A stretch of 36,470 nucleotides of DNA from a virus (IMGVR_UViG_3300029868_000028); one strand, 5' to 3'; counted from the first letter of the stretch, positions 9,985-36,470 are shown. The notes: generated by a model not told the origin, from the letters alone. Program-made: numbers and translations.

Positions 9985-11071
9985 TATAGCGAATTTACCA
10001 AAGCCCAATGTAATGCAAGTGCTAGATTTTGAAGATATTTTAAATCAAAATATAGCAAATTTTAAAACATTAGTGCCGGACTGGATACCTTTAGAGAGCG
10101 ATGAGTTTAAAATGATACTTGAGGCTTTTTCTTATAGAGAGCTTCATTTGAGAGCTGAGTTCAATACTCTAGCTAATGCTTTTTTTCTTTCAACTGCAAC
10201 TGGTAATGACCTTGATAATTATGCTGCATTTTATGGTGTAGAACGGCTTAGTGGTAGTAAGCCATATGTGGATTATGATTTTAGTTTAAGCGAACCATTA
10301 ACTCAAGATGTAGTGATACCAGCAAATTTAGTTTTAACTGATGAAAATAGTGTTTATGAAGCAAAGCTTTTAAGTGCTTTAACAATTTTCGCCGGCGAAA
10401 TTAAATCCACTGGTGCGGTTGAATTACAGATAGAAATATCAAGTAGTGATGTTAAAACTGAAATTATTACCACACCTTTACCTTTTGTGGTGGCTGCTTC
10501 AGCTACTGACATTTTTTCTAATGGTAGTAATGTTGAAAGTGATGAAGAGTTTAGAGCTAGAATACTTCTAAGTTTGGCTGATAAATCAACTGCTGGAAGT
10601 GAAGAAACTTATAAGTCGTTTACATTTAATTCAGATGAACGAATAGAAGATGTTGCAATATTAAGTGAAGCAGCTGGAACTGTGAATGTATATTATTACA
10701 GTTCATTAGCTGATGATTTAATGAAGACTAGAATAGTTGCTATGCTGAATAAAAAAGATGTTAGACCACTTACAGATAATGTTGTGGTCAATAAAGCAAC
10801 TGAAATAAATTTTAATATAACTGCTGAACTAAAGATATTACCAAACCAAGAAACTGCAACTGTTTATAGCAATGCAGCAGCTAGTTTAACTGCTGGTTTA
10901 AAATCACTTAAACAAATTGGTACTGACATAACATTGAGTGAAATAAATCAATTTCTAAAAGTGAATGGTGTTAAAGAAGTTGTAGTGACTGCACCAGTAG
11001 ATAATGTACTGATAGCTGATAGTGAGATAGGAGTGAATAGTGTTCCAACAATCACTTATACCATCATTTGA
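9971..11071 (+). CDS. Baseplate protein, P2 gpJ-like
   Basis: 366 aa, positioned between the gpW-like and gpI-like genes. Confidence 0.65.
   Translation: MKMINIANLPKPNVMQVLDFEDILNQNIANFKTLVPDWIPLESDEFKMILEAFSYRELHLRAEFNTLANAFFLSTATGNDLDNYAAFYGVERLSGSKPYVDYDFSLSEPLTQDVVIPANLVLTDENSVYEAKLLSALTIFAGEIKSTGAVELQIEISSSDVKTEIITTPLPFVVAASATDIFSNGSNVESDEEFRARILLSLADKSTAGSEETYKSFTFNSDERIEDVAILSEAAGTVNVYYYSSLADDLMKTRIVAMLNKKDVRPLTDNVVVNKATEINFNITAELKILPNQETATVYSNAAASLTAGLKSLKQIGTDITLSEINQFLKVNGVKEVVVTAPVDNVLIADSEIGVNSVPTITYTII
10387..10400. repeat. 14-bp palindrome TTTCGCCGGCGAAA, copy 2 (in the gpJ-like gene)
   Basis: Read directly from the sequence. Confidence 0.9.
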
Positions 11072-11573
11072 GGCTAAAGAGCTACATAGTTCTGATTTAG
11101 TAGCTGCTGATGTGCATAGTGCTTTATCAAGTGAGATAAAAGCATTTAAGAATTTAGCAAACCCTGAGCTGTGTGAATTAAAGTATCTACCTTTTTTAGC
11201 TTATGCTTTTAAGGTCGATTTTTGGGATGAAGATTTAAGTGAGAGTGATAAAAGAGCTTTGATAAAACAGAGCTTAGTTCTTCATAGATATAAAGGGACT
11301 GTTTGGGCTATTGAAAAAGTGTTTGAAGCCTTAAACCTTATCGCTACTACTTATGAGTGGTTTGATTATAACGGTGAACCGTATCACTTTAAAGTTGATA
11401 TTTCAATGCTAGACAAAGAAATTACAACAAAAAAAGTAGAAGACCTTATTAGATATATAGAAATCTTTAAGAATGTAAGAAGTGTTTTAGATGAGGTTTC
11501 TGTGAGTTATCTAATGTCAAATAATAAATTAATCGCAACCGGTTGTGTATGCGAAATAATGATGGGAGTTTAA
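11040..11573 (+). CDS. Tail protein, P2 gpI-like (GTG start)
   Basis: LPFLAYAFKVDFWDEDLSESDKRALIKQSLVLHRYKGTVWAIEKVFEAL is a typical gpI signature. Confidence 0.7.
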   Translation: MFQQSLIPSFEAKELHSSDLVAADVHSALSSEIKAFKNLANPELCELKYLPFLAYAFKVDFWDEDLSESDKRALIKQSLVLHRYKGTVWAIEKVFEALNLIATTYEWFDYNGEPYHFKVDISMLDKEITTKKVEDLIRYIEIFKNVRSVLDEVSVSYLMSNNKLIATGCVCEIMMGV

Positions 11574-11574
11574 A

Positions 11575-12036
11575 ATGATTGGTGAAGTAACTGTAACAAA
11601 TGATGGCTTAGCTGCACTAGCTACTTCATTGCAAGATGGAACACAAATAAAGCCACTTAGATTTGGCTTTTCAAATCAAATTCTTAGCGGTGACATTACT
11701 GCATATAAAGCAAGTGATGTTAACTGCTGGATACAAGGGAGTATAAAAGCGGTAAACAAAATTAGTAATGACATAGTTGAGTTTGTATGTGATGTTGCAC
11801 CAAATGAGGCTGTAGATTATGCAAGAACTGCAGTAATTTATTTAGATGATGAATTACTGTTTGTAATTGCTCAGCCACCTTATGCAATGCCACCAAGTGC
11901 AAGACAAATTATTAAAATTCAAATAGCTTATGCGAATATTGAAAGTTTAACAGATTTTATTTTTATTGAAACAGATATTACTGAGTATAAAAGTAAGTTT
12001 GAAAAATGGGATTTTATTGGCATTAAACCATGGTAA
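11575..12036 (+). CDS. Tail-collar/fibre proximal protein
   Basis: The N-terminus TVTNDGLAALA...IKPLRFGFS resembles the N-terminal domains of P2-type fibres. Confidence 0.5.
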   Translation: MIGEVTVTNDGLAALATSLQDGTQIKPLRFGFSNQILSGDITAYKASDVNCWIQGSIKAVNKISNDIVEFVCDVAPNEAVDYARTAVIYLDDELLFVIAQPPYAMPPSARQIIKIQIAYANIESLTDFIFIETDITEYKSKFEKWDFIGIKPW

Positions 12037-12048
12037 AGGAGAAATAAC

Positions 12049-13398
12049 ATGGCAGATATAAAAACAGCACAACAAACATTAGTGCGAAAAATACAAGAAA
12101 CAGCTGAGAGTACAAGCGACTTAGAAAAGTTAGCTTATGCTTCATCCGGTCTCGAAAAGTTAGCTAGTCAATCATTTGATACTTATATGGCTAGTGATAT
12201 GTTTAGTATCGGTAAGGTTGGTGAACAAGGCTTTGGTGTAGCAGCTATTGCTGATGAAGATTTACCAGCTGGGTTTGTAAAACTATATGGTCACGATGAT
12301 ATTACAAGTCCAAACTATGGAAATGTTTTAGACAATAATGGTTCTACTATGGTTTGGGTACCTAAGTTTTATTTTAAGATTGATGGTAATGTAGTATTTA
12401 TTTCAGATATTCAAGAAACTGGATATGTAATACACCGTGCTTTTGTTGACAATGGAATTAAAAAAGGCTTTTTTGTAGATAAATATGGGTGTGGTAATGT
12501 CGGTGGTAAGTTTATATCTAAACAAGGGATTGACCCATGTTCTACAAACTCAGCACACAACCCTATTAGTGCTTTAAACAATATACCAGCTAATAACTAT
12601 GGTGGACTTTATACAGCTGTAAAAACAAGAGGTAGTATTTTTGGACTTACTTCAGTATTTATTTACAAAGCTTTAGCACTATTAGCATATGCACAAGGTC
12701 AAGCAGCTACAAGTTCAGCAAACTGTGCCTTTATAGATGTTAACCCAAAAATGCCAAAAGGTAATTTAGTAAGTGCCTTACATGATGTAAATGATACGAG
12801 TGTAGTTTTTACTGCTAGTGGCTATTCAGATTGTGCCTTAACTGGTAGCGGTAATCCATTTGCAAAAACTACACACAATGGTCAATCATGTGGTGTTGCT
12901 GATTTAAATGGAAACATGTGGGAAGTAGCTAGTGGATTTATTCTTTTAGAAACTGTAGCTGCTTCACCGGCACCAACTGATTTTAGAGTACTCAAAGAAA
13001 CGGTTTCTATTGCTGATTTAGCAACTGATACTGAGGCTTACACTTCAGCTAATTATGACACTATTGATTTAACTGATTTAATCCCAGTTAACGAAACTGG
13101 TACATCGGTGTATTTTGGTAATGGTGTAAATCAAGTGTTTGCAATGAGTACAGATACAAATTCAGACCTTTATAAAAGAACTGCAATAGGTATTCCTATA
13201 GCTGATGGTGTTAGTGCTGCTGGTACTACTCAGTTTGGTAATGATTACTTATATAAGTATTTTAGAAATGAAATGGCTTGTATCGTCGGTGGGCATTGGG
13301 GTGACTCTTCTAGTGCCGGTGTTTTTGCTATGTATTTGAGCGCTAGCCGTCCTGGCTCGAGCGGCGCTGTGGGTGGTCGTGCCTCTTGTTTTGTGTAG
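12049..13398 (+). CDS. DGR target protein 1: fibre-tip/receptor-binding protein with a C-terminal FGE/C-type-lectin-like variable region
   Basis: The last about 37 codons (ACIVGGHWGDSSSAGVFAMYLSASRPGSSGAVGGRAS) are VR1. The body (WVPKFYF, HRAF, GFFVDKYGCGN) is paralogous to 26972..28069. Confidence 0.85.
   Translation: MADIKTAQQTLVRKIQETAESTSDLEKLAYASSGLEKLASQSFDTYMASDMFSIGKVGEQGFGVAAIADEDLPAGFVKLYGHDDITSPNYGNVLDNNGSTMVWVPKFYFKIDGNVVFISDIQETGYVIHRAFVDNGIKKGFFVDKYGCGNVGGKFISKQGIDPCSTNSAHNPISALNNIPANNYGGLYTAVKTRGSIFGLTSVFIYKALALLAYAQGQAATSSANCAFIDVNPKMPKGNLVSALHDVNDTSVVFTASGYSDCALTGSGNPFAKTTHNGQSCGVADLNGNMWEVASGFILLETVAASPAPTDFRVLKETVSIADLATDTEAYTSANYDTIDLTDLIPVNETGTSVYFGNGVNQVFAMSTDTNSDLYKRTAIGIPIADGVSAAGTTQFGNDYLYKYFRNEMACIVGGHWGDSSSAGVFAMYLSASRPGSSGAVGGRASCFV
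13276..13386 (+). repeat. DGR variable region VR1
   Basis: A 111-bp hand alignment to the TR gives 18 mismatches at TR adenines, one T>G, and one G>C in the 3' IMH-like end. Confidence 0.85.
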
Positions 13399-13426
13399 TA
13401 GTAAGCGATAGCGAGCGGATGAAGTA

Positions 13427-13819
13427 ATGGCAGTTCATAGTGAAGCAATTTTAAATAGGAAGTATATGGAAATGATGAAGTTATTAAATATTTATTTAAA
13501 CCATTTTCCAAGATTTGAAAAATATGCACTAGCAAACAACATTAGAAATACTGCATATGATGTTTATGATTTAATCACAGAATGTCAAAAACGGTATTAC
13601 AAAAAGACTTCACTAACTGAGCTTGATGTTACACATCAAAAGCTAAGAATGCAAATATATCTAGCTAATGAGCTTAATTATTTTGCTTTTAGAAATGGTA
13701 AAACAGATGTTAATGTTAATCCGGCACAAAGATTTTTATCAATCTCTTCTCTTATTGATGAGATAGGTAAATTGATAGGTGCTTGGATAAATAAATTAAA
13801 AGAAATGGGTAAGTTTTAA
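13427..13819 (+). CDS. avd: DGR accessory variability determinant (Avd-like four-helix-bundle protein)
   Basis: 130 aa (possibly a shorter start at ATG 13466). It has the HFPRFEKYALANNIRNTAYDVYDLITEC motif and lies between target and TR/RT. Confidence 0.75.
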   Translation: MAVHSEAILNRKYMEMMKLLNIYLNHFPRFEKYALANNIRNTAYDVYDLITECQKRYYKKTSLTELDVTHQKLRMQIYLANELNYFAFRNGKTDVNVNPAQRFLSISSLIDEIGKLIGAWINKLKEMGKF

Positions 13820-13854
13820 AGATGAAAGATTTAGGGCAATGTAGCAATATGAAA

Positions 13855-13965
13855 GCTTGTATCGTCGGTGGTAATTGGAGTAACTCTTCTAATGCCGGTG
13901 TTTTTGCTATGAATTTGAACAATAACCGTACTAACTCGAACAACAATGTGGGTGGTCGTGACTGT
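13855..13965 (+). repeat. DGR template repeat (TR)
   Basis: It matches VR1 and VR2. It holds 27 adenines and 11 AAY (Asn) codons in the VR reading frame. Its 3' end gtgggtggtcgtgACTGT differs from gtgggtggtcgtgCCTCT in both VRs (IMH* versus IMH). Confidence 0.85.
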
Positions 13966-13986
13966 ATTTCCAAACCTGAAACAACA

Positions 13987-15093
13987 ATGGTTGATACTGG
14001 AAATAGAGGGGTATATTGTCCTGGGATAACCGAAATCAAAATAGAAGAGAGTCTTTTTAGTAGCAATGTCGAAAAACAGACTGTCTCACAAAAATCTAAA
14101 AGAATTGGACATCTTTTTGAAAAAGCTTTTACTATGGAAAATCTGTATTTAGCCTATTTAGACGCAAGAAAAGGTAAGCGAAAAAAGAGGTCTACACTAA
14201 AGTTTGATATTAACCTTGGTGCTGAACTAAAAACACTTTGTGAAGAAATAAATGGTGGCACTTATAAGCCAAGACCATATTCTCAATTTTATGTATATGA
14301 ACCAAAAAAGAGATTAATAAATGCACCAGCATTTAGAGACCTAGTTGTGCAGCACTGTATTTACAGAGCCATATATGACACTTTTGATAAGAGTTTTGTT
14401 CATACATCATATGCTTGTAGAAAAGGTGGTGGTACTCATAAGGCTAGTGAATATACACAAAGAGAGATGAGAAAATACAATGGTGAGCTGTATTTTGTTA
14501 AGTTGGATATTCGTAAATTCTTTTACTCTATTGATAGAAATATATTAAGAGGTTTTTTTGAAAAAAAGATTAAAGATAAAAGGTTTGTAAACATTATGTG
14601 TGAATTTGCTGAGATGAATGGTGATAAAGGTATTCCTATAGGAAACCTACTATCTCAGATTTATGCACTTATTTATCTTAATCCATTAGACCATTTTATT
14701 AAAAGAGAATTGAAAGTTAAAAGCTATGTAAGGTATGTAGATGATTTTGTTTTGATAGGACTTACTTTAGAAAAAGCAAAAGAGTTTCAAGCTCGTTGTG
14801 AAAAGTTTGTACAAGATAATCTTAATCTTGAATTATCGCACTGGCATATTCAAAAGATTAAAAAAGGAATTAACTTTGTTGGTTATCGGACTTGGAAAAA
14901 GATTAAATTTGTAAGAAAACATAGCATGTATAAGTTTAAAAAGTTTGCAAAGAAGTCAAAAATAGAGTCAATAATTTCTCTTATTGGTCATGCAAAAGGC
15001 ACAGGTAGCATTGTGTATTTTCGGAAGATATGTATTGAGTCAAAAATCGTAAATTTATTACCAAAAAGGAGTGTATCGTGTTTAAATATGTAA
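13987..15093 (+). CDS. DGR reverse transcriptase (the start is uncertain; the open frame extends back to 13822 through the TR)
   Basis: Motifs present are IGNLLSQIYALIYLNPLDHF, YVRYVDDFVLIG (YxDD) and an N-terminal LFEKAFTMENLYLAYLDARKGKRKK. Confidence 0.85.
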   Translation: MVDTGNRGVYCPGITEIKIEESLFSSNVEKQTVSQKSKRIGHLFEKAFTMENLYLAYLDARKGKRKKRSTLKFDINLGAELKTLCEEINGGTYKPRPYSQFYVYEPKKRLINAPAFRDLVVQHCIYRAIYDTFDKSFVHTSYACRKGGGTHKASEYTQREMRKYNGELYFVKLDIRKFFYSIDRNILRGFFEKKIKDKRFVNIMCEFAEMNGDKGIPIGNLLSQIYALIYLNPLDHFIKRELKVKSYVRYVDDFVLIGLTLEKAKEFQARCEKFVQDNLNLELSHWHIQKIKKGINFVGYRTWKKIKFVRKHSMYKFKKFAKKSKIESIISLIGHAKGTGSIVYFRKICIESKIVNLLPKRSVSCLNM

Positions 15094-15599
15094 GTTATGA
15101 AAAAGTAGAAACTGAACATACAGTTTTAGAATTTAGAGGTGGTGATGATATTATCAAAGTGAAGCACTATGATGTACCAGTAGTAAGTATTGAAGCTGAT
15201 ATTGAAGCTGATATTGATAGCTTGATAGCTCAGCAACCAGCTGAAATTAAGTGTACTGAACTTGTTAGAGCTGATTTTATTGCTATTACAAAAGATACTG
15301 CACAAACAAAAAGAGCATTAGTGCAAATTAACGATGTATTTGAAAGTAGTGTTAATGCTTTAAGTGATGGTGTTCCGGATAACGAAAGATTATCATGGGA
15401 TAAGCAAGAAGCTGAAGCTAGAGCTTTTGTAGCTGCTTCAACAGCTGCTACACCACTGATTGATAATTTAGCTTTAGCTAGAGGAATTGATAAGGCTTAT
15501 TTAGTATCTAAAATTATTGAAAAAGCTGATTTATCTTCAGTGGCAGTTGGCACATTGGTTGGTGAAAGACAAAAAAAAGAAGATGAGCTTTTAGCATGA
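15078..15599 (+). CDS. Hypothetical protein, possibly tail-fibre assembly/chaperone-like (GTG start with AGGAG RBS)
   Basis: It sits after the fibre/DGR module. It contains an ERLSWDKQEAEARAF motif and an internal 12-bp tandem repeat (IEADIEADID). Confidence 0.3.
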   Translation: MFKYVSYEKVETEHTVLEFRGGDDIIKVKHYDVPVVSIEADIEADIDSLIAQQPAEIKCTELVRADFIAITKDTAQTKRALVQINDVFESSVNALSDGVPDNERLSWDKQEAEARAFVAASTAATPLIDNLALARGIDKAYLVSKIIEKADLSSVAVGTLVGERQKKEDELLA

Positions 15600-15925
15600 T
15601 TTACTCTCAAGTAATTGTACAACCACTAAAAGGTGATAAGTATAAATTACTTGAGGATTTTCAATATAAAACTGTATTAGTACCCAAGGGGTATAAAACA
15701 AATGGTGCAAATATTCCAAGATTATTCTGGGCTATTTACCCACCAAATAAAAGTGACTTTTTACCAGCTGTAATCATTCACGATTATTTATGTGACAAGG
15801 AGGAGTATAAAAAAGCTGATGATTTGTTTGAAGAGTGTTTAAGAGAGTTGGGTGTAACAAGTTTTGATTTAACTGTACTGGTTAAGAGTGTACGGATATA
15901 TCATAAGATTAAATATAAAATCTAA
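15596..15925 (+). CDS. DUF1353-like protein
   Basis: The pattern VPKGYKTNGANIPRLFW...PAVIIHDYLC resembles DUF1353 (from recall). Confidence 0.5.
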   Translation: MIYSQVIVQPLKGDKYKLLEDFQYKTVLVPKGYKTNGANIPRLFWAIYPPNKSDFLPAVIIHDYLCDKEEYKKADDLFEECLRELGVTSFDLTVLVKSVRIYHKIKYKI

Positions 15926-24548: not shown

Positions 24549-24625
24549 TGGTGGGCTTAGCAGGACTCGAACCTGCGACAACCCCGTTATGAGCGGGGGA
24601 CTCTAACCAGCTGAGTTATAAGCCC
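24549..24625 (-). tRNA. tRNA with CAU anticodon (elongator Met or Ile2), 77 nt with encoded CCA
   Basis: The hand-folded cloverleaf has acceptor GGGCTTA/TAAGCCC, D stem ACTC/GAGT, anticodon stem CCCCG/CGGGG with loop CTCATAA, and T stem GCAGG/CCTGC with loop TTCGAGT. G1-C72 argues against an initiator tRNA. Confidence 0.9.
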
Positions 24626-24634
24626 ATCTATTTA

Positions 24635-24666
24635 ACAAAAGGGACACCCAAAGGGACACCCAAATA
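24635..24666 (+). repeat. 32-bp direct repeat copy A (two tandem AAGGGACACCC units); candidate integrase arm-type sites
   Basis: It is identical to 24833..24864. Confidence 0.8.
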
Positions 24667-24832
24667 AATCTTAAAGTAGTTTATCGCCCTCTACAAGGCA
24701 CTTACAGCTTTTTCTAATTATCCGTTATGAGCCGATAGCACATAATACCATAACTTTGTAAACCTCGTTAAATAAGCCTATTTTCCTATCTTGCTATTGT
24801 AAATAAATCTAAATTTTTATATACTTTTAGAT

Positions 24833-24864
24833 ACAAAAGGGACACCCAAAGGGACACCCAAATA
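24833..24864 (+). repeat. 32-bp direct repeat copy B; candidate integrase arm-type sites
   Basis: It is identical to 24635..24666 and lies 22 bp upstream of the int2 start. Confidence 0.8.
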
Positions 24865-24885: not shown

Positions 24886-25959
24886 ATGGCTATAGATATA
24901 TCTGACTATCCAAATAAAATAAAAACCAATTTGTGGGCTAATAAAAAACATACAATATTCTACTACAATTTTAAAATAGACACTAAGAAACATAGAGGGC
25001 TCATTGATTTGAGTGATAAAGTAGCTTGGAGTAAAAGAGATAAAATCTCAGTAGCTGAAGCTGAGCTTATCAAAATAAAAGCTGATAAAAAAGATGGTGT
25101 ACTTAGCGATAAAATTACATTAGATAAATTTTTAGAAAAACACTATCAACTTCATGCTGAAACCAACTGGAAAAAAACAAGACTTAGTTTTTATGAAACA
25201 TATATTAGTCCAAGTATCGGTAAAAAAACATTAATATCTATAAGACAACTGCACATCAAAGAAGTTATAAAGATACAAGAAAACAAAAAACTAGCACCTA
25301 GGACTGTTAAACAAACTTTAGAGGTATTATCACCAATATTTAAAGCTGCTGTAGCTAATAGATTGATAGTACATAATCCACTTGATGGAATAAAAATAAA
25401 GCTACCAAAAACTAAAAAGATTGTTACTAATGCAACTGATAAACTGATTGAGATATACAAAGCGATACAAGAAGAGTTTAGTGAAGACCCTTTTTATCTA
25501 TCTTTATTTTTATTTGGTTTACAGGGTAGAAGAAGAGGTGAAATTTTAAAGCTTAGATGGGAAGATATGAACTTTAAAAATGATTATTATGTGCTAAGAG
25601 ATACTAAAAACAATGAAGAACAAAAAATATACTTACCGGATAATATCAAAACTGAGTTATTAAAATTTAAAAGAAGTAGTGGCTGGGTATATCAGTCAAG
25701 AAAAACAGATACACATATAGTTGATATTAGAAAAGCTACTGATAAGCTAAAAACTAGGCTTAATGATGATAACTTTGGTATTCACTATCTAAGAAATGTA
25801 ATTGTAAGTGCTATGGCTGAGGCTGGTATGGATAGTATTCATTTAAGTGGTGCATTAGGTCACAATGACCCAAATACTATTACTAAATATCTTACTTTGA
25901 ATTATCTAAAAGGTAGTGAACTTGCAAGTGATGTTATAGATGGCATAGTTAAGAAATAA
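24886..25959 (+). CDS. int: Tyrosine recombinase/integrase 2
   Basis: RRRGEILKLRWEDM, HYLRNVIVSAM (HxxR) and LGHNDPNTITKYL are present. The gene is adjacent to the tRNA and the repeats. Confidence 0.85.
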   Translation: MAIDISDYPNKIKTNLWANKKHTIFYYNFKIDTKKHRGLIDLSDKVAWSKRDKISVAEAELIKIKADKKDGVLSDKITLDKFLEKHYQLHAETNWKKTRLSFYETYISPSIGKKTLISIRQLHIKEVIKIQENKKLAPRTVKQTLEVLSPIFKAAVANRLIVHNPLDGIKIKLPKTKKIVTNATDKLIEIYKAIQEEFSEDPFYLSLFLFGLQGRRRGEILKLRWEDMNFKNDYYVLRDTKNNEEQKIYLPDNIKTELLKFKRSSGWVYQSRKTDTHIVDIRKATDKLKTRLNDDNFGIHYLRNVIVSAMAEAGMDSIHLSGALGHNDPNTITKYLTLNYLKGSELASDVIDGIVKK

Positions 25960-26438: not shown

Positions 26439-26981
26439 CTAAAATGGTATCTCATCACCATCTTCATCTTTTTGTGGTGCTGGTTGTTGGTAGCTTTGTT
26501 GCTGCTGTGGTGCTTGATAACTTGCTGGTGTTTGCTGTGAGTTGGCATAATCATCTTGATAGCCTTGATTGTTGTTATCTTGGGTATCTTGCATGGTTTT
26601 AATATCATAAAGATAATTAACCACTTCACCATCAAATCTTGGTTCAGCTTTCCAAACAGCTATAGAGACTTTTGTAAAAGCTACTTCAAGTGTCCCAGTC
26701 ATAAACTTTTTAAGTACACCATCAATAACCTTTTCACCAAGCCATAATGAACCAATAGCAATATCTCTAAAACTATCACCTTTATTTATGTTACTTCTAA
26801 GATAAATAATGAAGTCCGGTTGGTTTGGTTTTTCTTTTCTTTTGTTTGGTGTCATTTTTGCACTAAATGGTCTAATGCCAGCTATTCTAAAATGACATTC
26901 AAGCCATTTAATTACTTTACTCTCTTTTGTATCTTTATCTTTTACACTCATACTTTCTTGTTTTATGAAACCTATTTGCAT
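26439..26981 (-). CDS. DUF736-like domain protein with a Q/P-rich linker and SSB-type acidic C-terminal tip (..DEDGDEIPF)
   Basis: The N-terminus has IGF...NQPDFIIY...IGSLW, a DUF736-like pattern from recall. The C-terminal architecture mimics the SSB linker plus DDDIPF tip. Confidence 0.45.
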   Translation of the reverse strand: MQIGFIKQESMSVKDKDTKESKVIKWLECHFRIAGIRPFSAKMTPNKRKEKPNQPDFIIYLRSNINKGDSFRDIAIGSLWLGEKVIDGVLKKFMTGTLEVAFTKVSIAVWKAEPRFDGEVVNYLYDIKTMQDTQDNNNQGYQDDYANSQQTPASYQAPQQQQSYQQPAPQKDEDGDEIPF

Positions 26982-28069
26982 TTTAATTTTCCTTTTTTAT
27001 TGTTTAATTTATTATATAGTGAGCTATCGCTCACTATTACAGAGGCACGACCACCCACAGTGTTGCTCGAGTAAGTACGGTTATTGTACAAATACATAGC
27101 AAAAACACCGGCATTAGAAGAGTTACCCCAATTACCACCGACGAGACAAGCTAGTTCATTCCTAGCATATCTATACACACCAGCCTTAGCAAATCTTTCA
27201 TTACTATTATCACTAAGTGCTTTTGTTCTAGGAATACCCATACATGTTTTTATATAATCTTTAGAGTAAATATCATCACTCATTTTAAAAGCTGTAGTTT
27301 CATCGCTGGTATACTTCCAACCACCATCACCAATAAACTTAGTCAAGTCTAAATTATCATAAAAAGTTTCATTATATGCCTCAGTATCACTTTCAAGTTC
27401 AGCAGCTGCTGAATTAAACTTAAGCACTTTAAAAATTCCATCTTCATCATTTAGTTTAGTTAGTCCAGCTGCAACTTCATATCTTGATGGGTCAATGTTT
27501 TTTACACCACATTCTTGATTGTTATGAAACTTCATTTGTTCTAACTTATTTCCATTATTTGCATAAGCCAACATTCCTAAAGCATTCCAAATAAATAGAG
27601 TTGTTAAAAAATGCTTATCACCTCTTGTTTTAACCGCTTTATACAGTCCACCAAGGTTAGAGTTAGGATTGTTACTTAAATGCGAAATAGAGTCATTCCC
27701 ATAAGTACTACAAGGTTTTAAATCTTCTTTACTTGTAAACTTACCATCCACATTACCACATTCATATTTATCTATGAAAAAACCATCTTGTTCAGCACCA
27801 CCATCTATAAAAGCACGGTGTAAAACATAACCATCTTTTTCAACTGCTGAAATCTTACATTTGTTCTTTTTAGTCCACTTAAAATAAAACCTAGGTATCC
27901 ATACCATCACTGAACCATTATCATCTAAAACATTTCCATAGTTGGAATGTTCCGGGTTATCGTGACCATCTAATTTACTCCAACCTTTTGGAACTTGTTT
28001 ATCTTCAATGGCTGCTACACCAAAACCTACTTCACCAGCTACACCAATTAAATCTACATTATGTTCCAT
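26972..28069 (-). CDS. DGR target protein 2 (remote): FGE/C-type-lectin-like paralog of 12049..13398 lacking its N-terminal about 50-60 aa
   Basis: It shares blocks GFGVAAI, NYGNVLD.NGS.MVW.P.FYF, GYV.HRAF, GFF.DKY.CGNV.GKF, and GGLY.AVKTRG. Its C-terminus ACLVGGNWGNSSNAGVFAMYLYNNRTYSSNTVGGRAS is VR2. An AGGA RBS lies upstream. Confidence 0.85.
   Translation of the reverse strand: MEHNVDLIGVAGEVGFGVAAIEDKQVPKGWSKLDGHDNPEHSNYGNVLDDNGSVMVWIPRFYFKWTKKNKCKISAVEKDGYVLHRAFIDGGAEQDGFFIDKYECGNVDGKFTSKEDLKPCSTYGNDSISHLSNNPNSNLGGLYKAVKTRGDKHFLTTLFIWNALGMLAYANNGNKLEQMKFHNNQECGVKNIDPSRYEVAAGLTKLNDEDGIFKVLKFNSAAAELESDTEAYNETFYDNLDLTKFIGDGGWKYTSDETTAFKMSDDIYSKDYIKTCMGIPRTKALSDNSNERFAKAGVYRYARNELACLVGGNWGNSSNAGVFAMYLYNNRTYSSNTVGGRASVIVSDSSLYNKLNNKKGKLKCK
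27017..27036 (-). promoter_or_regulatory. Perfect 8-bp stem / 4-nt loop hairpin (TAGTGAGC-GATA-GCTCACTA) 4 nt downstream of VR2
   Basis: Read directly from the sequence. Its position and geometry match the DGR target hairpin/cruciform described for Bordetella phage BPP-1. Confidence 0.7.
27041..27151 (-). repeat. DGR variable region VR2
   Basis: The reverse complement aligns over 111 bp to the TR. There are 8 mismatches, all at TR adenines, plus the same 3' G>C seen in VR1. Confidence 0.85.
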
Positions 28070-28183: not shown

Positions 28184-28193
28184 CCCCCCCCCC
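28184..28193 (-). repeat. Homopolymeric G10 tract (C10 on the plus strand) 115-124 nt upstream of the DGR target 2 start codon
   Basis: Read directly. No other G/C homopolymer run of comparable length was seen in the window. Confidence 0.9.
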
Positions 28194-28237: not shown

Positions 28238-28747
28238 TCATTTACTTGCATGTTGTATTTCCTTTATATTTTTATTTGCTCTAACTACACTTGAATAGTA
28301 AGAAACGGTTACCTCTCTTTGATAAACTATTGCACTACCACACACTCCACATTCAATAGTGCCACTATCAATATATTCCCAATTATCACTAAACTCATTA
28401 GCACAATTAGGACATGTAATCTCATCATTATCATGACTTGTTTCATTGAATGGTGGTTCTTTAATCTCTTCAACTGAAAGAAGATTTAGTTTAAAATCTT
28501 GGTGACATAATTTATAAAATTTATCATCAATTTTAATTATTCCACTTTCAAATTCAACACCATCATCAAGTTCTTTTATTATCTCAAAATCATCAATAGT
28601 CTTACTTACTTTAGCAACTACTGATACATCCCATTTAACTATGTAAAAAGTGCTTTGTTCTTTTACTTCACAATGCTCAGAACACATACCACATAAACCA
28701 GTTTCATCTACAATAGGGTAACTACAACAGTTACTTATTTTTTTCAT
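28238..28747 (-). CDS. Hypothetical zinc-ribbon protein
   Basis: Cys clusters CC..x..CGMCSEHC and CPNC...CGVCG are present. The gene is coupled to parB. Confidence 0.4.
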   Translation of the reverse strand: MKKISNCCSYPIVDETGLCGMCSEHCEVKEQSTFYIVKWDVSVVAKVSKTIDDFEIIKELDDGVEFESGIIKIDDKFYKLCHQDFKLNLLSVEEIKEPPFNETSHDNDEITCPNCANEFSDNWEYIDSGTIECGVCGSAIVYQREVTVSYYSSVVRANKNIKEIQHASK

Positions 28748-29643
28748 TATCCTAACCTCACAAATTCATTATTTATCATCACATAGATATTAAGTTCTTC
28801 TAAGTGGTAATTTCCACCTACTCCACCTAAAACCTCACCAAAATGGTCACTATCTTTTTTTGTTGGTATAGTTACCTCAAAAGGGACCGGCTTACCATCT
28901 TTAGTATGATAAGACTGCTGAGAATAATGCTTTGAAGATTTTTTAATCATTGCATATAGTTGAGTTTCTTTTTTCGCCGGCGAAATTTTTACATCTTTTA
29001 TTACTTTTATAGCTCTGTTATAGTGTCTTATTTCCTCTCTTGTTAAATTTGTTTGATAAGCTTCAAGTTGCTTAGCTTCATCTTTTATATTACTAAGCTC
29101 TTGCAATATCTCTAAACCAATATCTTTTTTATTAGCTTCAATATCAGCTACTATTTCATCACATATTTTTACAGCTTTAAAGACCTTTGATAAATAGCTT
29201 TGTGGTTTACCTATTGCAGCAGCTAATTCTTTTTTAGTTTCATAGTTTTTACTAGCCCAAAGCTGATTTATAAATTTTGCTTTTTCAAAATCTGTTAAAT
29301 CATCCCTTTGGATATTTTCTACAAGTGCTAATTCAAGTACCTTTTTTTCATCGGCTACTATTATGTGAGCTTTGATAGTTTTTAGTTCAAGTGTTTCACA
29401 TGCTCTAAATCTTCTTTCACCGCTGATAATCATGTATTTACTATCAACTTTAACAACTGCTATAGGTTGAATTAAGCCATTAGTAGAAATACTAGCTGCT
29501 AACTCATCAATCTCATTAAAGCTTTTTCTAGGCTGGTTAGGGTTCGGATATACTTTGTGTAGTTCAAGCTCTAAAAATGGACTTACACCAGTAGTTCTAA
29601 CCTTTCCTTTAGTAGCTGAATTAATCGCTGATAAGTTCATCAC
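28747..29643 (-). CDS. parB: ParB-like partition/nuclease-domain protein
   Basis: VYPNPNQPRKSF...LIQPIAVV...YMIISGERRFRA is present. Confidence 0.85.
   Translation of the reverse strand: MMNLSAINSATKGKVRTTGVSPFLELELHKVYPNPNQPRKSFNEIDELAASISTNGLIQPIAVVKVDSKYMIISGERRFRACETLELKTIKAHIIVADEKKVLELALVENIQRDDLTDFEKAKFINQLWASKNYETKKELAAAIGKPQSYLSKVFKAVKICDEIVADIEANKKDIGLEILQELSNIKDEAKQLEAYQTNLTREEIRHYNRAIKVIKDVKISPAKKETQLYAMIKKSSKHYSQQSYHTKDGKPVPFEVTIPTKKDSDHFGEVLGGVGGNYHLEELNIYVMINNEFVRLG
28972..28985. repeat. 14-bp palindrome TTTCGCCGGCGAAA, copy 3 (in parB)
   Basis: Read directly from the sequence. Confidence 0.9.
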
Positions 29644-30232
29644 ATAGCCTTTTAATTTCGCCAGCTGCTACTTTGTCTTTTACATCAAAAACAGATTTAC
29701 CAACACCTAAAGTATCTTTGTAAATTTTTCTATTTCTTATGATAGATTTTTGCAGTTTTATTTGTGGGTTATCACCAATAGCTCCAGTAATCACATCAAA
29801 GTTTTTAGCTAATGGGTGTATGTTGTTCAGTACCACATTAATGAAAGGGTTTTGTATCTCTTGTAGTATCGCTTCAAATGTTTTAAAACCAAGTACCTCA
29901 GTAACACTATTTGCAATAGGTACTACAACTTTATCAGCCCAAGAGATAGCAATACGGTTAATATCATTATCAAAACCACCTACATCAACTATAAGGTATC
30001 CATCATAGTTTTCAAATAGTTCTATAAGTTCATCACCGCTTTGTGGTTGAACTACATCTAAACTATCAAGCTTTGTTTCTACTCTTATATGGTTGATAAA
30101 AAAAAGTGTTTGTTGAAAATCTAAATCAACTATAGTTACTTTTTTACCATCGGCTTTTAAAGAGTTAGCCAAGTTCCAAGCAAGGGTAGATTTACCAGTG
30201 CCACCTTTTGAATGTGCTACTGTAATAATCAT
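29621..30232 (-). CDS. parA: ParA-like partition ATPase (small, no N-terminal HTH)
   Basis: It has the deviant Walker A motif HSKGGTGKST, is 203 aa long, and overlaps parB. Confidence 0.85.
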   Translation of the reverse strand: MIITVAHSKGGTGKSTLAWNLANSLKADGKKVTIVDLDFQQTLFFINHIRVETKLDSLDVVQPQSGDELIELFENYDGYLIVDVGGFDNDINRIAISWADKVVVPIANSVTEVLGFKTFEAILQEIQNPFINVVLNNIHPLAKNFDVITGAIGDNPQIKLQKSIIRNRKIYKDTLGVGKSVFDVKDKVAAGEIKRLCDELISD

Positions 30233-30358: not shown

Positions 30359-30430
30359 TATATCATAATCATACAGATTGAATGATTAAGAATAACTTAA
30401 AAACCATTCATACTGTATGATTATGATATA
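30359..30430. promoter_or_regulatory. Perfect 18-bp inverted repeat (TATATCATAATCATACAG / CTGTATGATTATGATATA) with a 36-bp partly palindromic spacer, between parA and 30452
   Basis: Read directly. The arms carry TGnTATAAT-like extended -10 elements facing outward (TGATATAAT at 30424..32). Confidence 0.6.
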
Positions 30431-32124: not shown

Positions 32125-32171
32125 TATGTGAAAACCCCTTTACATTCAAATTGTATCAAATATACTCAAAC

Positions 32172-32219
32172 GAATTGAATGGTTTTTAAGTTCTTATTAA
32201 CCATTCATTCTGTATGATT
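32172..32219. promoter_or_regulatory. Operator-like element in the cI / cro-like intergenic region, similar to 30376..30425
   Basis: By eye, about 38 of 52 positions are identical. The flanks ATTGAATG and AACCATTCATnCTGTATGATT are conserved, and there is an internal 8-bp dyad GAATGGTT/AACCATTC. Confidence 0.5.
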
Positions 32220-32224
32220 TTGTT

Positions 32225-32449
32225 ATGAAACGAAAAAACCTTAAAAAACTACTACTAAAATCATATACAGTTGCTGGTGCTGATTTAATCTTAAGAGGTG
32301 ATAGAAAGCCTCGGTATGAAATCATGGTTGAACTAGCTAAAAAGAATAAAATTCCTTTTGGTATTTGGCTTGATATTAAATCTTATTTAAAGAATGATAC
32401 AAAAGATTGTGGTGTTGAGTCTAATACAAAACAAGATACAAGGGTATAA
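32225..32449 (+). CDS. Cro-like small regulator (assigned by position; the start is uncertain and no clear RBS is present)
   Basis: It is divergent from the repressor and 74 aa long. Confidence 0.35.
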   Translation: MKRKNLKKLLLKSYTVAGADLILRGDRKPRYEIMVELAKKNKIPFGIWLDIKSYLKNDTKDCGVESNTKQDTRV

Positions 32450-33141: not shown

Positions 33142-33504
33142 ATGAGAGTACCAACAAAGCAAGAACAACCTACATTTAAAGCTGCTTTTAACTGCATTTG
33201 TAGAGTTGCAGCTGCACTACATTCTACAAGTAATATTCATGAAATTAAAATATCAAATGGTAGAGAACTAAACTCTTTACCAATAAAGTTAGTTAATCTT
33301 TTTATTGATAATGGAACTTCTAAAATGCAAAATGACTATAGCATGTTAAATGAAGAAAAAACACTACATGAATTTACACAATACATCTTCAGTAATCGCC
33401 TACAGCCAAAAGATTATATCTTTCAAGGTTTAATATCAATTCATAAAACAACTGTTAAAGAACACACTTATGAATACACTGATGATAGTAGGTATTCATC
33501 ATGA
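33142..33504 (+). CDS. Hypothetical early protein
   Basis: The ORF has a GGGAG RBS. No family was recognised. Confidence 0.35.
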   Translation: MRVPTKQEQPTFKAAFNCICRVAAALHSTSNIHEIKISNGRELNSLPIKLVNLFIDNGTSKMQNDYSMLNEEKTLHEFTQYIFSNRLQPKDYIFQGLISIHKTTVKEHTYEYTDDSRYSS

Positions 33505-34364
33505 AGTACACATTAATTATCAATCAAAAACAAGCTTTAGAACTTGGTATGAAAAATGTAAATCAAGTAATTATACTTGGATTAATTGCTGATAGTCACT
33601 CTTGGGCTGAGCCTGAGATTATTGATAGTCAAGTTTATTACTGGACTGCTAGACAAAAAATATCAGATGAATTACCACTACTAAATTTAAAATCTGATAG
33701 TGTTTATAGGCACTTAAAAACCTTAGCAGTTTTAGAGCTTATTGACTATAGAAAAGTAGGTAAAAAAGATTGTGTAAGACTTACTAAAAAAGGTAAAAGT
33801 TACTATGTCGGAAATAAATCCGAATTTGATAATAACTCGGAAATAAATCCGAATGAACTCGGAAATAAATCCGAAAAAAACTCGGAAATAAATCCGACAT
33901 ATAAGAATACTAATTCTATAAGAGTTACAAAAGAAATAAAAGAAGAAGAAAGATATACAAAAGACTTTTCTGAAATTTTAAATATTTGGAATGAAGTAGC
34001 AGCTACTTCAAATCTAAATAAAGTTTCTAAACTTACCACTAAAAGAAGAAATAAAATAATTACTAGACTAAATGAAAATGAAAACTTTTTAGAAGATTTT
34101 AAAGCAGCTATAGAAAATATTAAACTCAGTAACTTTTTGCAAGGTAAAAATAATCGTAACTGGAAGATTGATTTTGATTGGTTAATTACAAATGATACAA
34201 ACTTTGTAAAAGTCTTAGAGGGAAAATATACTGATAATGCTGCACCAGATAAGCAAACAGACTTTAGTCAATTTGGAACTGTACCTAAAAGTGCTTTTGC
34301 AGTTGATGATTTTATTGATACTGAACCAATACCACAAATAACCACAGGAGCTACACATGAATAG
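33501..34364 (+). CDS. Replication initiator (lambda O-like organisation: N-terminal wHTH-like domain with the origin iterons inside the gene)
   Basis: Four iterons lie in the linker region of the gene. A conserved C-terminal block NWKIDFDWLITNDTNFVKVLEGKY is present. Confidence 0.55.
   Translation: MKYTLIINQKQALELGMKNVNQVIILGLIADSHSWAEPEIIDSQVYYWTARQKISDELPLLNLKSDSVYRHLKTLAVLELIDYRKVGKKDCVRLTKKGKSYYVGNKSEFDNNSEINPNELGNKSEKNSEINPTYKNTNSIRVTKEIKEEERYTKDFSEILNIWNEVAATSNLNKVSKLTTKRRNKIITRLNENENFLEDFKAAIENIKLSNFLQGKNNRNWKIDFDWLITNDTNFVKVLEGKYTDNAAPDKQTDFSQFGTVPKSAFAVDDFIDTEPIPQITTGATHE
33808..33897. repeat. Four 16-bp iterons TCGGAAATAAATCCGA (33808, 33837, 33859, 33882), each with TCGGA/TCCGA dyad ends, followed by an A-rich stretch
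   Basis: Read directly. All four copies are exact. Confidence 0.85.
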
Positions 34365-36185: not shown

Positions 36186-36470
36186 TTCTAGTCGATATGG
36201 GTACAAAGTACAGCTATACCATTTAAAAGATGGAGATATTACTTATTATATAGTTTATAAAGATGGTCAAGAAAGATACTGCAAGAAAATAGGTAGAAAA
36301 TCTGATGGTATTACTGAAAAAAAATGTATAGACCTTAGAAGCCAAATATTAAGTGAACAAAGACATGGTGTTGACCTAAGCCAAAAGAGTTTCAAACATC
36401 TAACTTTTGATAAATTAGCTGAGAGATATTTTTCAAGCCTTGAACTATCTAGCCAAAAGAGATACCAGCA
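36178..36470 (+). CDS. int: Integrase 1, N-terminal portion (continues at base 1 after circularisation)
   Basis: The same frame is open from GTG 36178 (alternative ATG 36130) through the repeat into 1..903. It encodes ...GYKVQLYHLKDGDITYYIVYKDG..., resembling the N-terminal arm-binding region of integrase 2. The exact start is uncertain. Confidence 0.6.
   Translation, partial: MINSSRYGYKVQLYHLKDGDITYYIVYKDGQERYCKKIGRKSDGITEKKCIDLRSQILSEQRHGVDLSQKSFKHLTFDKLAERYFSSLELSSQKRYQ
36352..36470. repeat. Terminal direct repeat, right copy (identical to 1..119)
   Basis: Base-by-base identity read directly. Confidence 0.95.

Follow-up and report, generated by a model that had tools for sequence, protein, structure and literature searches.

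The diversity-generating retroelement (DGR) of Bordetella phage BPP-1, arranged as mtd-avd-TR-brt (TR, template repeat), is among the closest described counterparts of the locus reported here, which occupies positions 12,049 to 15,093 of IMGVR_UViG_3300029868_000028, a viral DNA of 36,470 nucleotides (this whole analysed stretch is referred to as the window). In BPP-1, a fold-back between the TR and the spacer preceding the reverse transcriptase (RT) gene serves self-priming, and conserved RNA elements have been documented in DGRs (PMC6182149; bioRxiv 10.1101/2023.10.23.563531). The hairpin or cruciform of phage DGRs has been described as a stem of 7-10 bp with a 4-nt GRNA loop, located 4-34 bp after the variable repeat (VR) of the target gene (Guo 2011, PMC3240598). 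Prophage DGRs may comprise one TR together with an adjacent and a non-adjacent target within 50 kb, and many phage-associated cases are on record (Wu et al. 2018, PMC5758913). According to the present analysis, the locus represents, with a probability of about 0.9, a functional DGR of the canonical target-avd-TR-RT type in a temperate phage with a P2-like tail: every defining DGR feature that was tested was found, save the perfect hairpin at the first variable repeat (VR1). It is a well-documented example of a known system, with its target on the branch of the C-type-lectin-fold variable proteins that is represented by TaqVP of Thermus aquaticus (5vf4) and not on the Mtd branch; the DGR concept itself is left unchanged by the host lineage, the habitat, the VR turnover, the target pair, the post-VR element and the open frame described below.

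The resemblance to BPP-1 comprises the gene order, the presence of a homologue of Avd (accessory variability determinant), the TR rich in AAY codons, the RT (match to bRT at 2e-53 over 280 residues) and the C-terminal position of the VR in a tail protein of C-type-lectin fold; it extends to the GC-rich core of the initiation of mutagenic homing sequence (IMH) with TR-specific bases in its counterpart IMH*, the pairing between TR and spacer, the length of the latter (~130 nt here versus 144 nt in BPP-1; PMC6182149) and a hairpin with GRNA loop after a VR (here VR2; criteria of PMC3240598). In contrast to the podovirus BPP-1, the present phage is a myovirus with a P2-like tail; two targets are present, the target is TaqVP-like instead of Mtd-like, VR1 is accompanied by a conserved sequence element without a perfect hairpin, and TR and spacer are situated within the RT frame, whereas the BPP-1 spacer has been described as non-coding. 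The match to TaqVP spans the GN(M/V)WE core and the VR segment; however, the identity amounts to ~19-21%, TaqVP is a cellular protein, and target 1 possesses an N-terminal helical anchor and is part of a phage tail module. Among the deposited phage genomes, the closest RT (48.6% identical) belongs to the DGR of Pseudomonas phage Bise (OR683401), which has the same order of four-helix-bundle gene, TR, spacer and RT, its spacer containing conserved nucleotide blocks. Bise differs in the high GC content of its host, in the stops that interrupt its TR-to-RT frame and in an RT with its own ATG directly before KR.GNLF.

The components of the element are located as follows:

12049-13398, plus strand: target gene 1 (449 aa), with VR1 at its C-terminus
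13276-13386, plus strand: VR1; its last 18 nt (13369-13386) constitute the IMH
13427-13819, plus strand: avd (130 aa), the accessory variability determinant
13822-15093, plus strand: open reading frame (ORF) of 423 aa comprising TR, spacer and RT; RT domain proper at ~14098-15093
13855-13965, plus strand: TR; IMH* at 13948-13965
13966-14097, plus strand: spacer between TR and RT, ~130 nt
26972-28069, minus strand: target gene 2 (365 aa), with VR2 near its C-terminus
27041-27151, minus strand: VR2; IMH at 27041-27058

A first-pass annotation, made from the sequence only, had aligned TR and VR1 over 111 bp; the recomputed alignment has the same coordinates and is free of gaps (a repeat search extends it to 122 nt at 80%). 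TR and VR1 differ at 20 of the 111 positions, and 18 of these mismatches are on TR adenines (hypergeometric P = 3e-12). As had been counted before, 18 of the 27 TR adenines are altered in VR1 (12 A>G, 5 A>C, 1 A>T), and the repeat body contains a single further change, the synonymous T>G at 13293 (GGT>GGG); the only other non-adenine change, G>C, concerns the IMH tail. VR2 deviates from the TR at nine positions, eight of them adenines (P = 4e-5), so that the adenine bias on which the earlier interpretation depended is present in both variable repeats. The TR contains exactly 11 AAT or AAC codons and conforms to the stop-free design proposed for it, a stop codon being impossible by any adenine change; its 26 mutable adenines, all upstream of the IMH core, correspond to a theoretical repertoire of ~1.7e15 protein variants per VR. 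Both VRs end in GTGGGTGGTCGTGCCTCT and the TR in GTGGGTGGTCGTGACTGT, in agreement with the suggested distinction between IMH and IMH*: a G/C-rich core of 13 nt common to the repeats is followed by CCTCT in both VRs versus ACTGT in the TR (differing ends ...GTGCCTCT versus ...GTGACTGT). Within the window, the core GTGGGTGGTCGTG is confined to VR1, TR and VR2, with exactly one copy in each (0 expected), and the C-versus-A discriminator of IMH and IMH* is also present in related loci.

The two accessory proteins were examined with profile searches. The Avd-like gene of the first-pass annotation was recognized by the Pfam model bAvd (62.1 bits, E = 8e-17; cut-off of 40) and had 'Avd protein of DGR' as its best PHROG match (4e-19). 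In the RT, the previously noticed motifs IGNLLSQ (ORF residues 273-279) and YVDD (residues 305-308) are intact; the protein matches RVT_1 (6e-17), PHROG 1423 (5e-114) and the RTs of known DGR phages including the Bordetella phage, and among solved structures it is most similar to the DGR RT of the Bordetella phage (PDB 8ub7, E = 2e-53), whereas group II intron RTs attain 4e-17 at best and retron-type and Drt3a RTs match still more weakly. Judged from the SQ motif, YVDD and its best relative bRT, the enzyme is a member of the DGR clade. The RT of the proposed cassette is present, with the refinement that the ORF 13822-15093 itself contains the TR; the RT domain is placed from ~14098 onward because the alignment with 8ub7 begins at ORF residue 93. 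All four parts of the proposed cassette order target-avd-TR-RT were found, each by an independent test.

The identification of the targets rested on structure prediction because Pfam and NCBIfam gave no family. Target 1 belongs to a family with more than 1,000 matches, including proteins of Halarcobacter and Sulfurimonas, and its AlphaFold2 model (54 sequences; mean confidence pLDDT 89.8) combines a helical hairpin at the N-terminus (residues 4-40) with a body similar to C-type lectins and the formylglycine-generating enzyme (FGE). In the Foldseek comparison, TaqVP (5vf4) was the best PDB match (E = 3e-16, TM score 0.52-0.61), followed by the weaker matches Mtd variants (E ~0.01), FGE-like PvdO and TvpA; 5vf4 was also the sole significant PDB sequence match by phmmer (E = 3e-7). 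The comparison with Mtd and TvpA suggested earlier thus resulted in a C-type-lectin-like protein to which both are less similar than TaqVP. In a viral structure library, a protein of Campylobacter phage CP220 (E = 4e-25) ranked before many 'tail collar fiber' proteins, and PHROG tail families match as well. The gene is preceded by genes for a gpV-like protein, gpW (GPW_gp25), Baseplate_J, Tail_P2_I and a 153-aa ORF and followed by avd, TR, RT, a 173-aa ORF, a DUF1353 chaperone, sheath and tube; according to this order, target 1 occupies the position of the fibre gene gpH of P2. Its location behind the P2-type gpI, as originally described, is confirmed by Baseplate_J and Tail_P2_I on one side and chaperone and sheath on the other. 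Baseplate_J and Tail_P2_I were detected in the window itself and indicate a P2-like contractile tail; GPW_gp25, sheath, tube, P2_GpU, tail_X and GPD were found in an identical contig.

The tail-fibre position and the structural matches to tail-collar fibres support the proposal that target 1 is probably the receptor-binding fibre tip; diversification of VR1 would most likely alter the receptor specificity and may thereby change the tropism of the phage. A DGR that is active on a target 1 without function in host receptor binding, serving, e.g., the binding of an environmental ligand or the evasion of a host factor, appears unlikely, even if it is the best surviving alternative: The protein is without Pfam family or experimental homologue, the nearest solved structure is that of TaqVP, a cellular protein whose ligand is not known, and its paralogue, target 2, is clearly encoded outside the structural module. 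These features are opposed by the gpH position of the gene between gpI and the tail-assembly chaperone, by the N-terminal helical anchor, which is absent from the non-structural paralogue, and by the PHROG tail families and viral-library neighbours, the latter being mostly tail (collar) fibre proteins.

The same phage was recovered from different North Pond samples and provides an unusually clear natural record of DGR activity: outside the two variable repeats and a poly-G tract, its copies match base for base. Contig L001, from another North Pond sample, differs from the window at 18 positions over 21,350 bp; all of them are located in VR1 (13282-13364), 16 at TR-adenine positions, and the remaining two are T/G differences, each directly beside a substituted adenine. 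The TR, avd, RT and 21 kb of structural genes of L001 are identical to those of the window. Three natural VR1 alleles were distinguished (window; L001/L015; L016), the L016 allele differing from that of L001 at one further adenine position. Contig L009 overlaps the 3' part of VR2; in its 2,084 bp of alignment to the window, the six deviating positions correspond without exception to TR adenines within VR2. The TR is invariant between independent contigs. The VR heterogeneity at TR-adenine positions for which the first-pass annotation had proposed a test is thus present among consensus assemblies of the same phage, and these observations support a DGR naturally active on both targets.

A relic, i.e. 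an element that diversified its VRs in the past and is now inoperative, is very improbable in view of these alleles: The missing perfect hairpin downstream of VR1 and the unclear start codon of the RT without a preceding Shine-Dalgarno sequence would be compatible with it, but different VR1 alleles occur in genomes that are identical over 21 kb (VR2 alleles likewise over 2 kb), the changes are confined to TR-A sites, the TR is invariant, and ORFs and catalytic motifs are intact. That the repeats are ordinary drifted paralogous duplications accompanied by an RT of group II intron, retron or defence origin, without any directed mutagenesis, has a negligible probability, as the 39% identity of the paralogous targets and the sub-threshold NCBIfam matches of the RT to group II, Drt3a and retron models are outweighed by the concentration of the mismatches on TR adenines (P = 3e-12 and 4e-5), the near-identity of the repeat in paralogues that are elsewhere only 39% identical, a DGR RT match 36 orders of magnitude better than that to group II RTs, the SQ motif, the presence of Avd and the position of all NCBIfam RT matches far under their cut-offs. 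As a separate observation, the sole non-adenine changes among the VR1 alleles are T>G at 13293 (window) and at 13331 (L001/L016 allele), each beside an altered adenine.

Several points weigh against the interpretation as a functional DGR. Efficient homing in BPP-1 depends on a perfect hairpin, which VR1 does not have; the NCBIfam equivalog model DivGenRetAVD scores the Avd at 68.8 bits, under its cut-off of 80; neither target 1 nor target 2 belongs to a Pfam or NCBIfam family, and target 2 has neither a signal peptide nor an anchor nor a known partner. The VR alleles were read from consensus assemblies of independent contigs and represent between-sample differences, not a within-population mutation rate.

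By homology to the BPP-1 system, the proposed mechanism would proceed as follows. The avd-TR-spacer-RT region would be transcribed, and a complex of RT and Avd would bind the structured RNA around the TR, including the covarying helix between the TR 3' end and the spacer. This complex would prime itself and copy the TR into cDNA, with random bases incorporated opposite the 26 template adenines; the cDNA would then replace the homologous VR, directed by the IMH and the downstream RCGATAGY element or hairpin, and the IMH* in the TR would render the transfer one-directional.

The following cis elements and RNA structures were located:

27016-27037, minus strand: perfect hairpin, 3 nt after VR2, with a 9-bp stem and GATA loop
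13404-13412, plus strand: post-VR element AGCGATAGC of the RCGATAGY family, 17 nt after VR1
27023-27031, minus strand: the same element after VR2
13962-13971 and 13999-14008, plus strand: RNA helix between the TR 3' end (IMH*-specific bases included) and the spacer

The hairpin after VR2 was recognized by DNA folding (-8.8 kcal/mol, z = -4.7, none of 200 shuffles as stable) and also as an inverted repeat; its stem has a G+C content of 44%, it contains AGCGATAGC, and it fits the description of the hairpin/cruciform by Guo 2011. Behind VR1, no BPP-1-type hairpin was detected by fold and inverted-repeat search (z = +1.3); of such a hairpin, VR1 retains only the left arm and the GATA loop, and an imperfectly paired stem that includes tandem G·A pairs could be conceived. 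The 9-mer occurs twice in the window, both times after a VR, versus 0.06 expected occurrences. A total of 20 VRs of the window and related loci have RCGATAGY at a nearly fixed distance of 14-28 nt downstream of the IMH-like core, in most cases unaccompanied by a perfect hairpin; based on this survey, a conserved sequence element is common to every VR of the clade, which does not hold for a perfect stem. VR1, which diversifies without the canonical hairpin and with the conserved element, is suitable material for the study of the mechanism.

The TR-spacer helix is supported by an RNAalifold analysis of 23 diverged loci, with compensatory changes in six of its nine pairs; 94% of the cells are paired versus 39-54% in slid controls, and the covariation amounts to 0.314 versus 0.146±0.018, a value reached by none of 500 shuffles. 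It agrees with the fold-back of BPP-1 and the conserved RNA elements of DGRs.

Target 2 is a paralogue of target 1 (39% identity, BLASTP 2e-84), and PHROG tail families match it. It is devoid of the N-terminal anchor of 46 residues and begins exactly at the end of the target 1 hairpin; an internal segment of ~55 residues is missing as well. The first-pass annotation had noticed both VRs and treated the element as part of the fibre module, the second target being neither located nor interpreted; the gene is situated 13 kb from the cassette and outside the fibre and structural module, in a leftward regulatory operon with the order parA-parB-orf169-small ORF-target 2-orf180-xis-like gene (excisionase-like helix-turn-helix (HTH) protein). 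The combination of a long anchored and a short target with a single TR recurs in at least two other phage contigs with RTs of ~80% identity, in one of which the short target is located downstream of cro/CP76 homologues; a third related locus likewise contains two VRs. As in the prophage DGRs of Wu et al. 2018, a single TR is available for an adjacent and a distant target of the same phage, and the two-target layout is not new in kind because non-adjacent prophage targets have been documented (PMC5758913). The present phage differs from those cases in having, as second target, a conserved, anchorless short form encoded in a regulatory region, in the length-variable poly-G tract that precedes it, and in the recurrence of the pairing of long and short form in diverged phages. 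Such a conserved pair of targets on one TR offers further material for mechanistic studies, as does a TR embedded in the RT frame. As to the role of target 2, the best guess is an additional ligand-binding protein produced early or under certain conditions.

The reading frame of target 2 extends 22 codons beyond VR2, includes the hairpin and shares 10 nt with the next ORF (start at 26981), unlike target 1 and the family consensus, in which the stop follows three codons after the VR. A palindrome-rich element of 65 nt is present in two copies, at 30365-30429 (upstream of parA) and at 32162-32226 (between the S24 repressor and a cro-like gene). Both are candidates for left and right operators, and target 2 would be part of an early-left operon if they are. 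A role of target 2 as lysogenic-conversion gene was also considered; the 65-nt palindromic repeats rather suggest the putative early-left operon, and the short target of another phage is located behind cro/CP76.

A further feature of this operon is the tract upstream of target 2:

28184-28193, minus strand: poly-G tract (G10) inside the small ORF that starts at 28251

It is the only G/C homopolymer of at least 7 nt in the genome. In the G9 state, the ORF encodes 59 aa and ends 1 nt before the ATG of target 2, versus an early termination in the G10 state of the window; no family match was obtained for the 59-aa protein. G9 is present in contigs L005 and L007, and L006 has a G>A at 28193; elsewhere, these three contigs are identical to the window or differ at one other base. 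The length change looks like slipped-strand phase variation, even though the differences may be assembly errors at a homopolymer; phase variation would make the tract a candidate for switching expression around the non-structural target 2.

The 423-aa ORF starts with an ATG at 13822, 2 nt past the avd stop, and reaches the RT without interruption across the TR and the ~130-nt spacer. Every one of the 12 loci whose RT is at least 72% identical has an open TR-RT frame, as do 19 of the 38 distinct sequences in total; the other two frames contain 45 and 120 stops in the 19 spacer sequences, and the indels by which the open-frame loci differ have lengths divisible by three. Of the best 120 protein clusters (56-100% identity), 103 extend over 95% or more of the 423-residue length. 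The spacer differences are distributed over codon positions 1/2/3 as 1362/1688/1919, and the synonymous share of differing codon pairs is 17% in the spacer versus 51% in the RT; ORF residues 1-91 are predicted to be disordered (AlphaFold2 pLDDT 31-40), the RT core being modelled confidently.

A TR-RT fusion as a constrained protein segment was rejected on account of the 17% synonymous share, the little third-position excess, the disorder and the stops in Bise. For an RT start inside the spacer, candidate ATG and TTG codons exist, their positions being inconsistent between the loci. The frame seems to be kept open with an unconstrained peptide, which would fit a hypothetical translated leader that brings avd-coupled ribosomes to the RT. 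It is a tentative and, on balance, doubtful proposition that in this clade (Campylobacterota phages and some relatives) the TR and the priming spacer belong to the RT's own frame, translationally coupled to avd, and that the RT carries a disordered leader of ~91 residues; no description of such an open TR-RT frame was found in the searchable literature. If it applies, the leader RNA would be at the same time the template and primer of the enzyme, translation and template use would be mutually exclusive, and RT production and mutagenesis would be coupled or gated.

With respect to the genome, bases 1-119 are an exact repeat of 36352-36470 (119 bp at both ends of the window), which indicates a circularly assembled or terminally redundant genome of 36,351 bp with a G+C content of 32%. 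The head genes are lambda/HK97-like and not P2-like, the tail genes P2-like; integrase, S24 repressor, ParA/ParB and an excisionase-like HTH protein are encoded, and the carrier of the DGR is a temperate myovirus with a P2-like tail. A DNA search of the deposited phage genomes yielded no close relative and only four matches (1-4% query cover), to Helicobacter and Campylobacter phages. Further features are:

11575-12036, plus strand: 153-aa ORF between gpI and target 1, after Tail_P2_I (11040-11573)
15596-15925, plus strand: DUF1353/tail-assembly chaperone (PHROG 1158, 2e-31; PF07087), directly before the sheath gene
24549-24625: complete tRNA-Met gene, adjoining the integrase gene

The 153-aa ORF has no Pfam or PHROG family match and is, from its genomic context, possibly a fibre or baseplate adaptor. 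The tRNA was the sole RNA family matched in the Rfam search; it is identical to tRNA genes of one Sulfurimonas and one Campylobacterales metagenome-assembled genome, the homology to these two loci ending ~35 bp past the tRNA. The phage probably infects a deep-sea, Sulfurimonas-like bacterium within the Campylobacterales. It is present in North Pond crustal-fluid metagenomes, and one of the source datasets, Ga0071101, appears in a study of these fluids that describes Sulfurimonas as the dominant genus at the deepest horizon of the aquifer (PMC4776111). With this probable host, targeted hypermutation of a putative receptor-binding protein would be placed in phages of Sulfurimonas in a subseafloor aquifer.

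A direct repeat of 32 nt, ACAAAAGGGACACCCAAAGGGACACCCAAATA, is located at 24635-24666 and 24833-24864, and the tRNA-Met/integrase region 24549-24864 is probably the phage attachment site attP with integrase arm sites. The genome combines a ParA/ParB pair (28747-30232, minus strand) with a tyrosine integrase (24886-25959); the phage may persist either as a plasmid or integrated into the chromosome. Four iteron-like copies of AACTCGGAAATAAATCCGA, spaced by 22-29 nt, are situated at 33794-33897 in or near a 287-aa ORF (33501-34364), and this cluster is possibly a replication origin.

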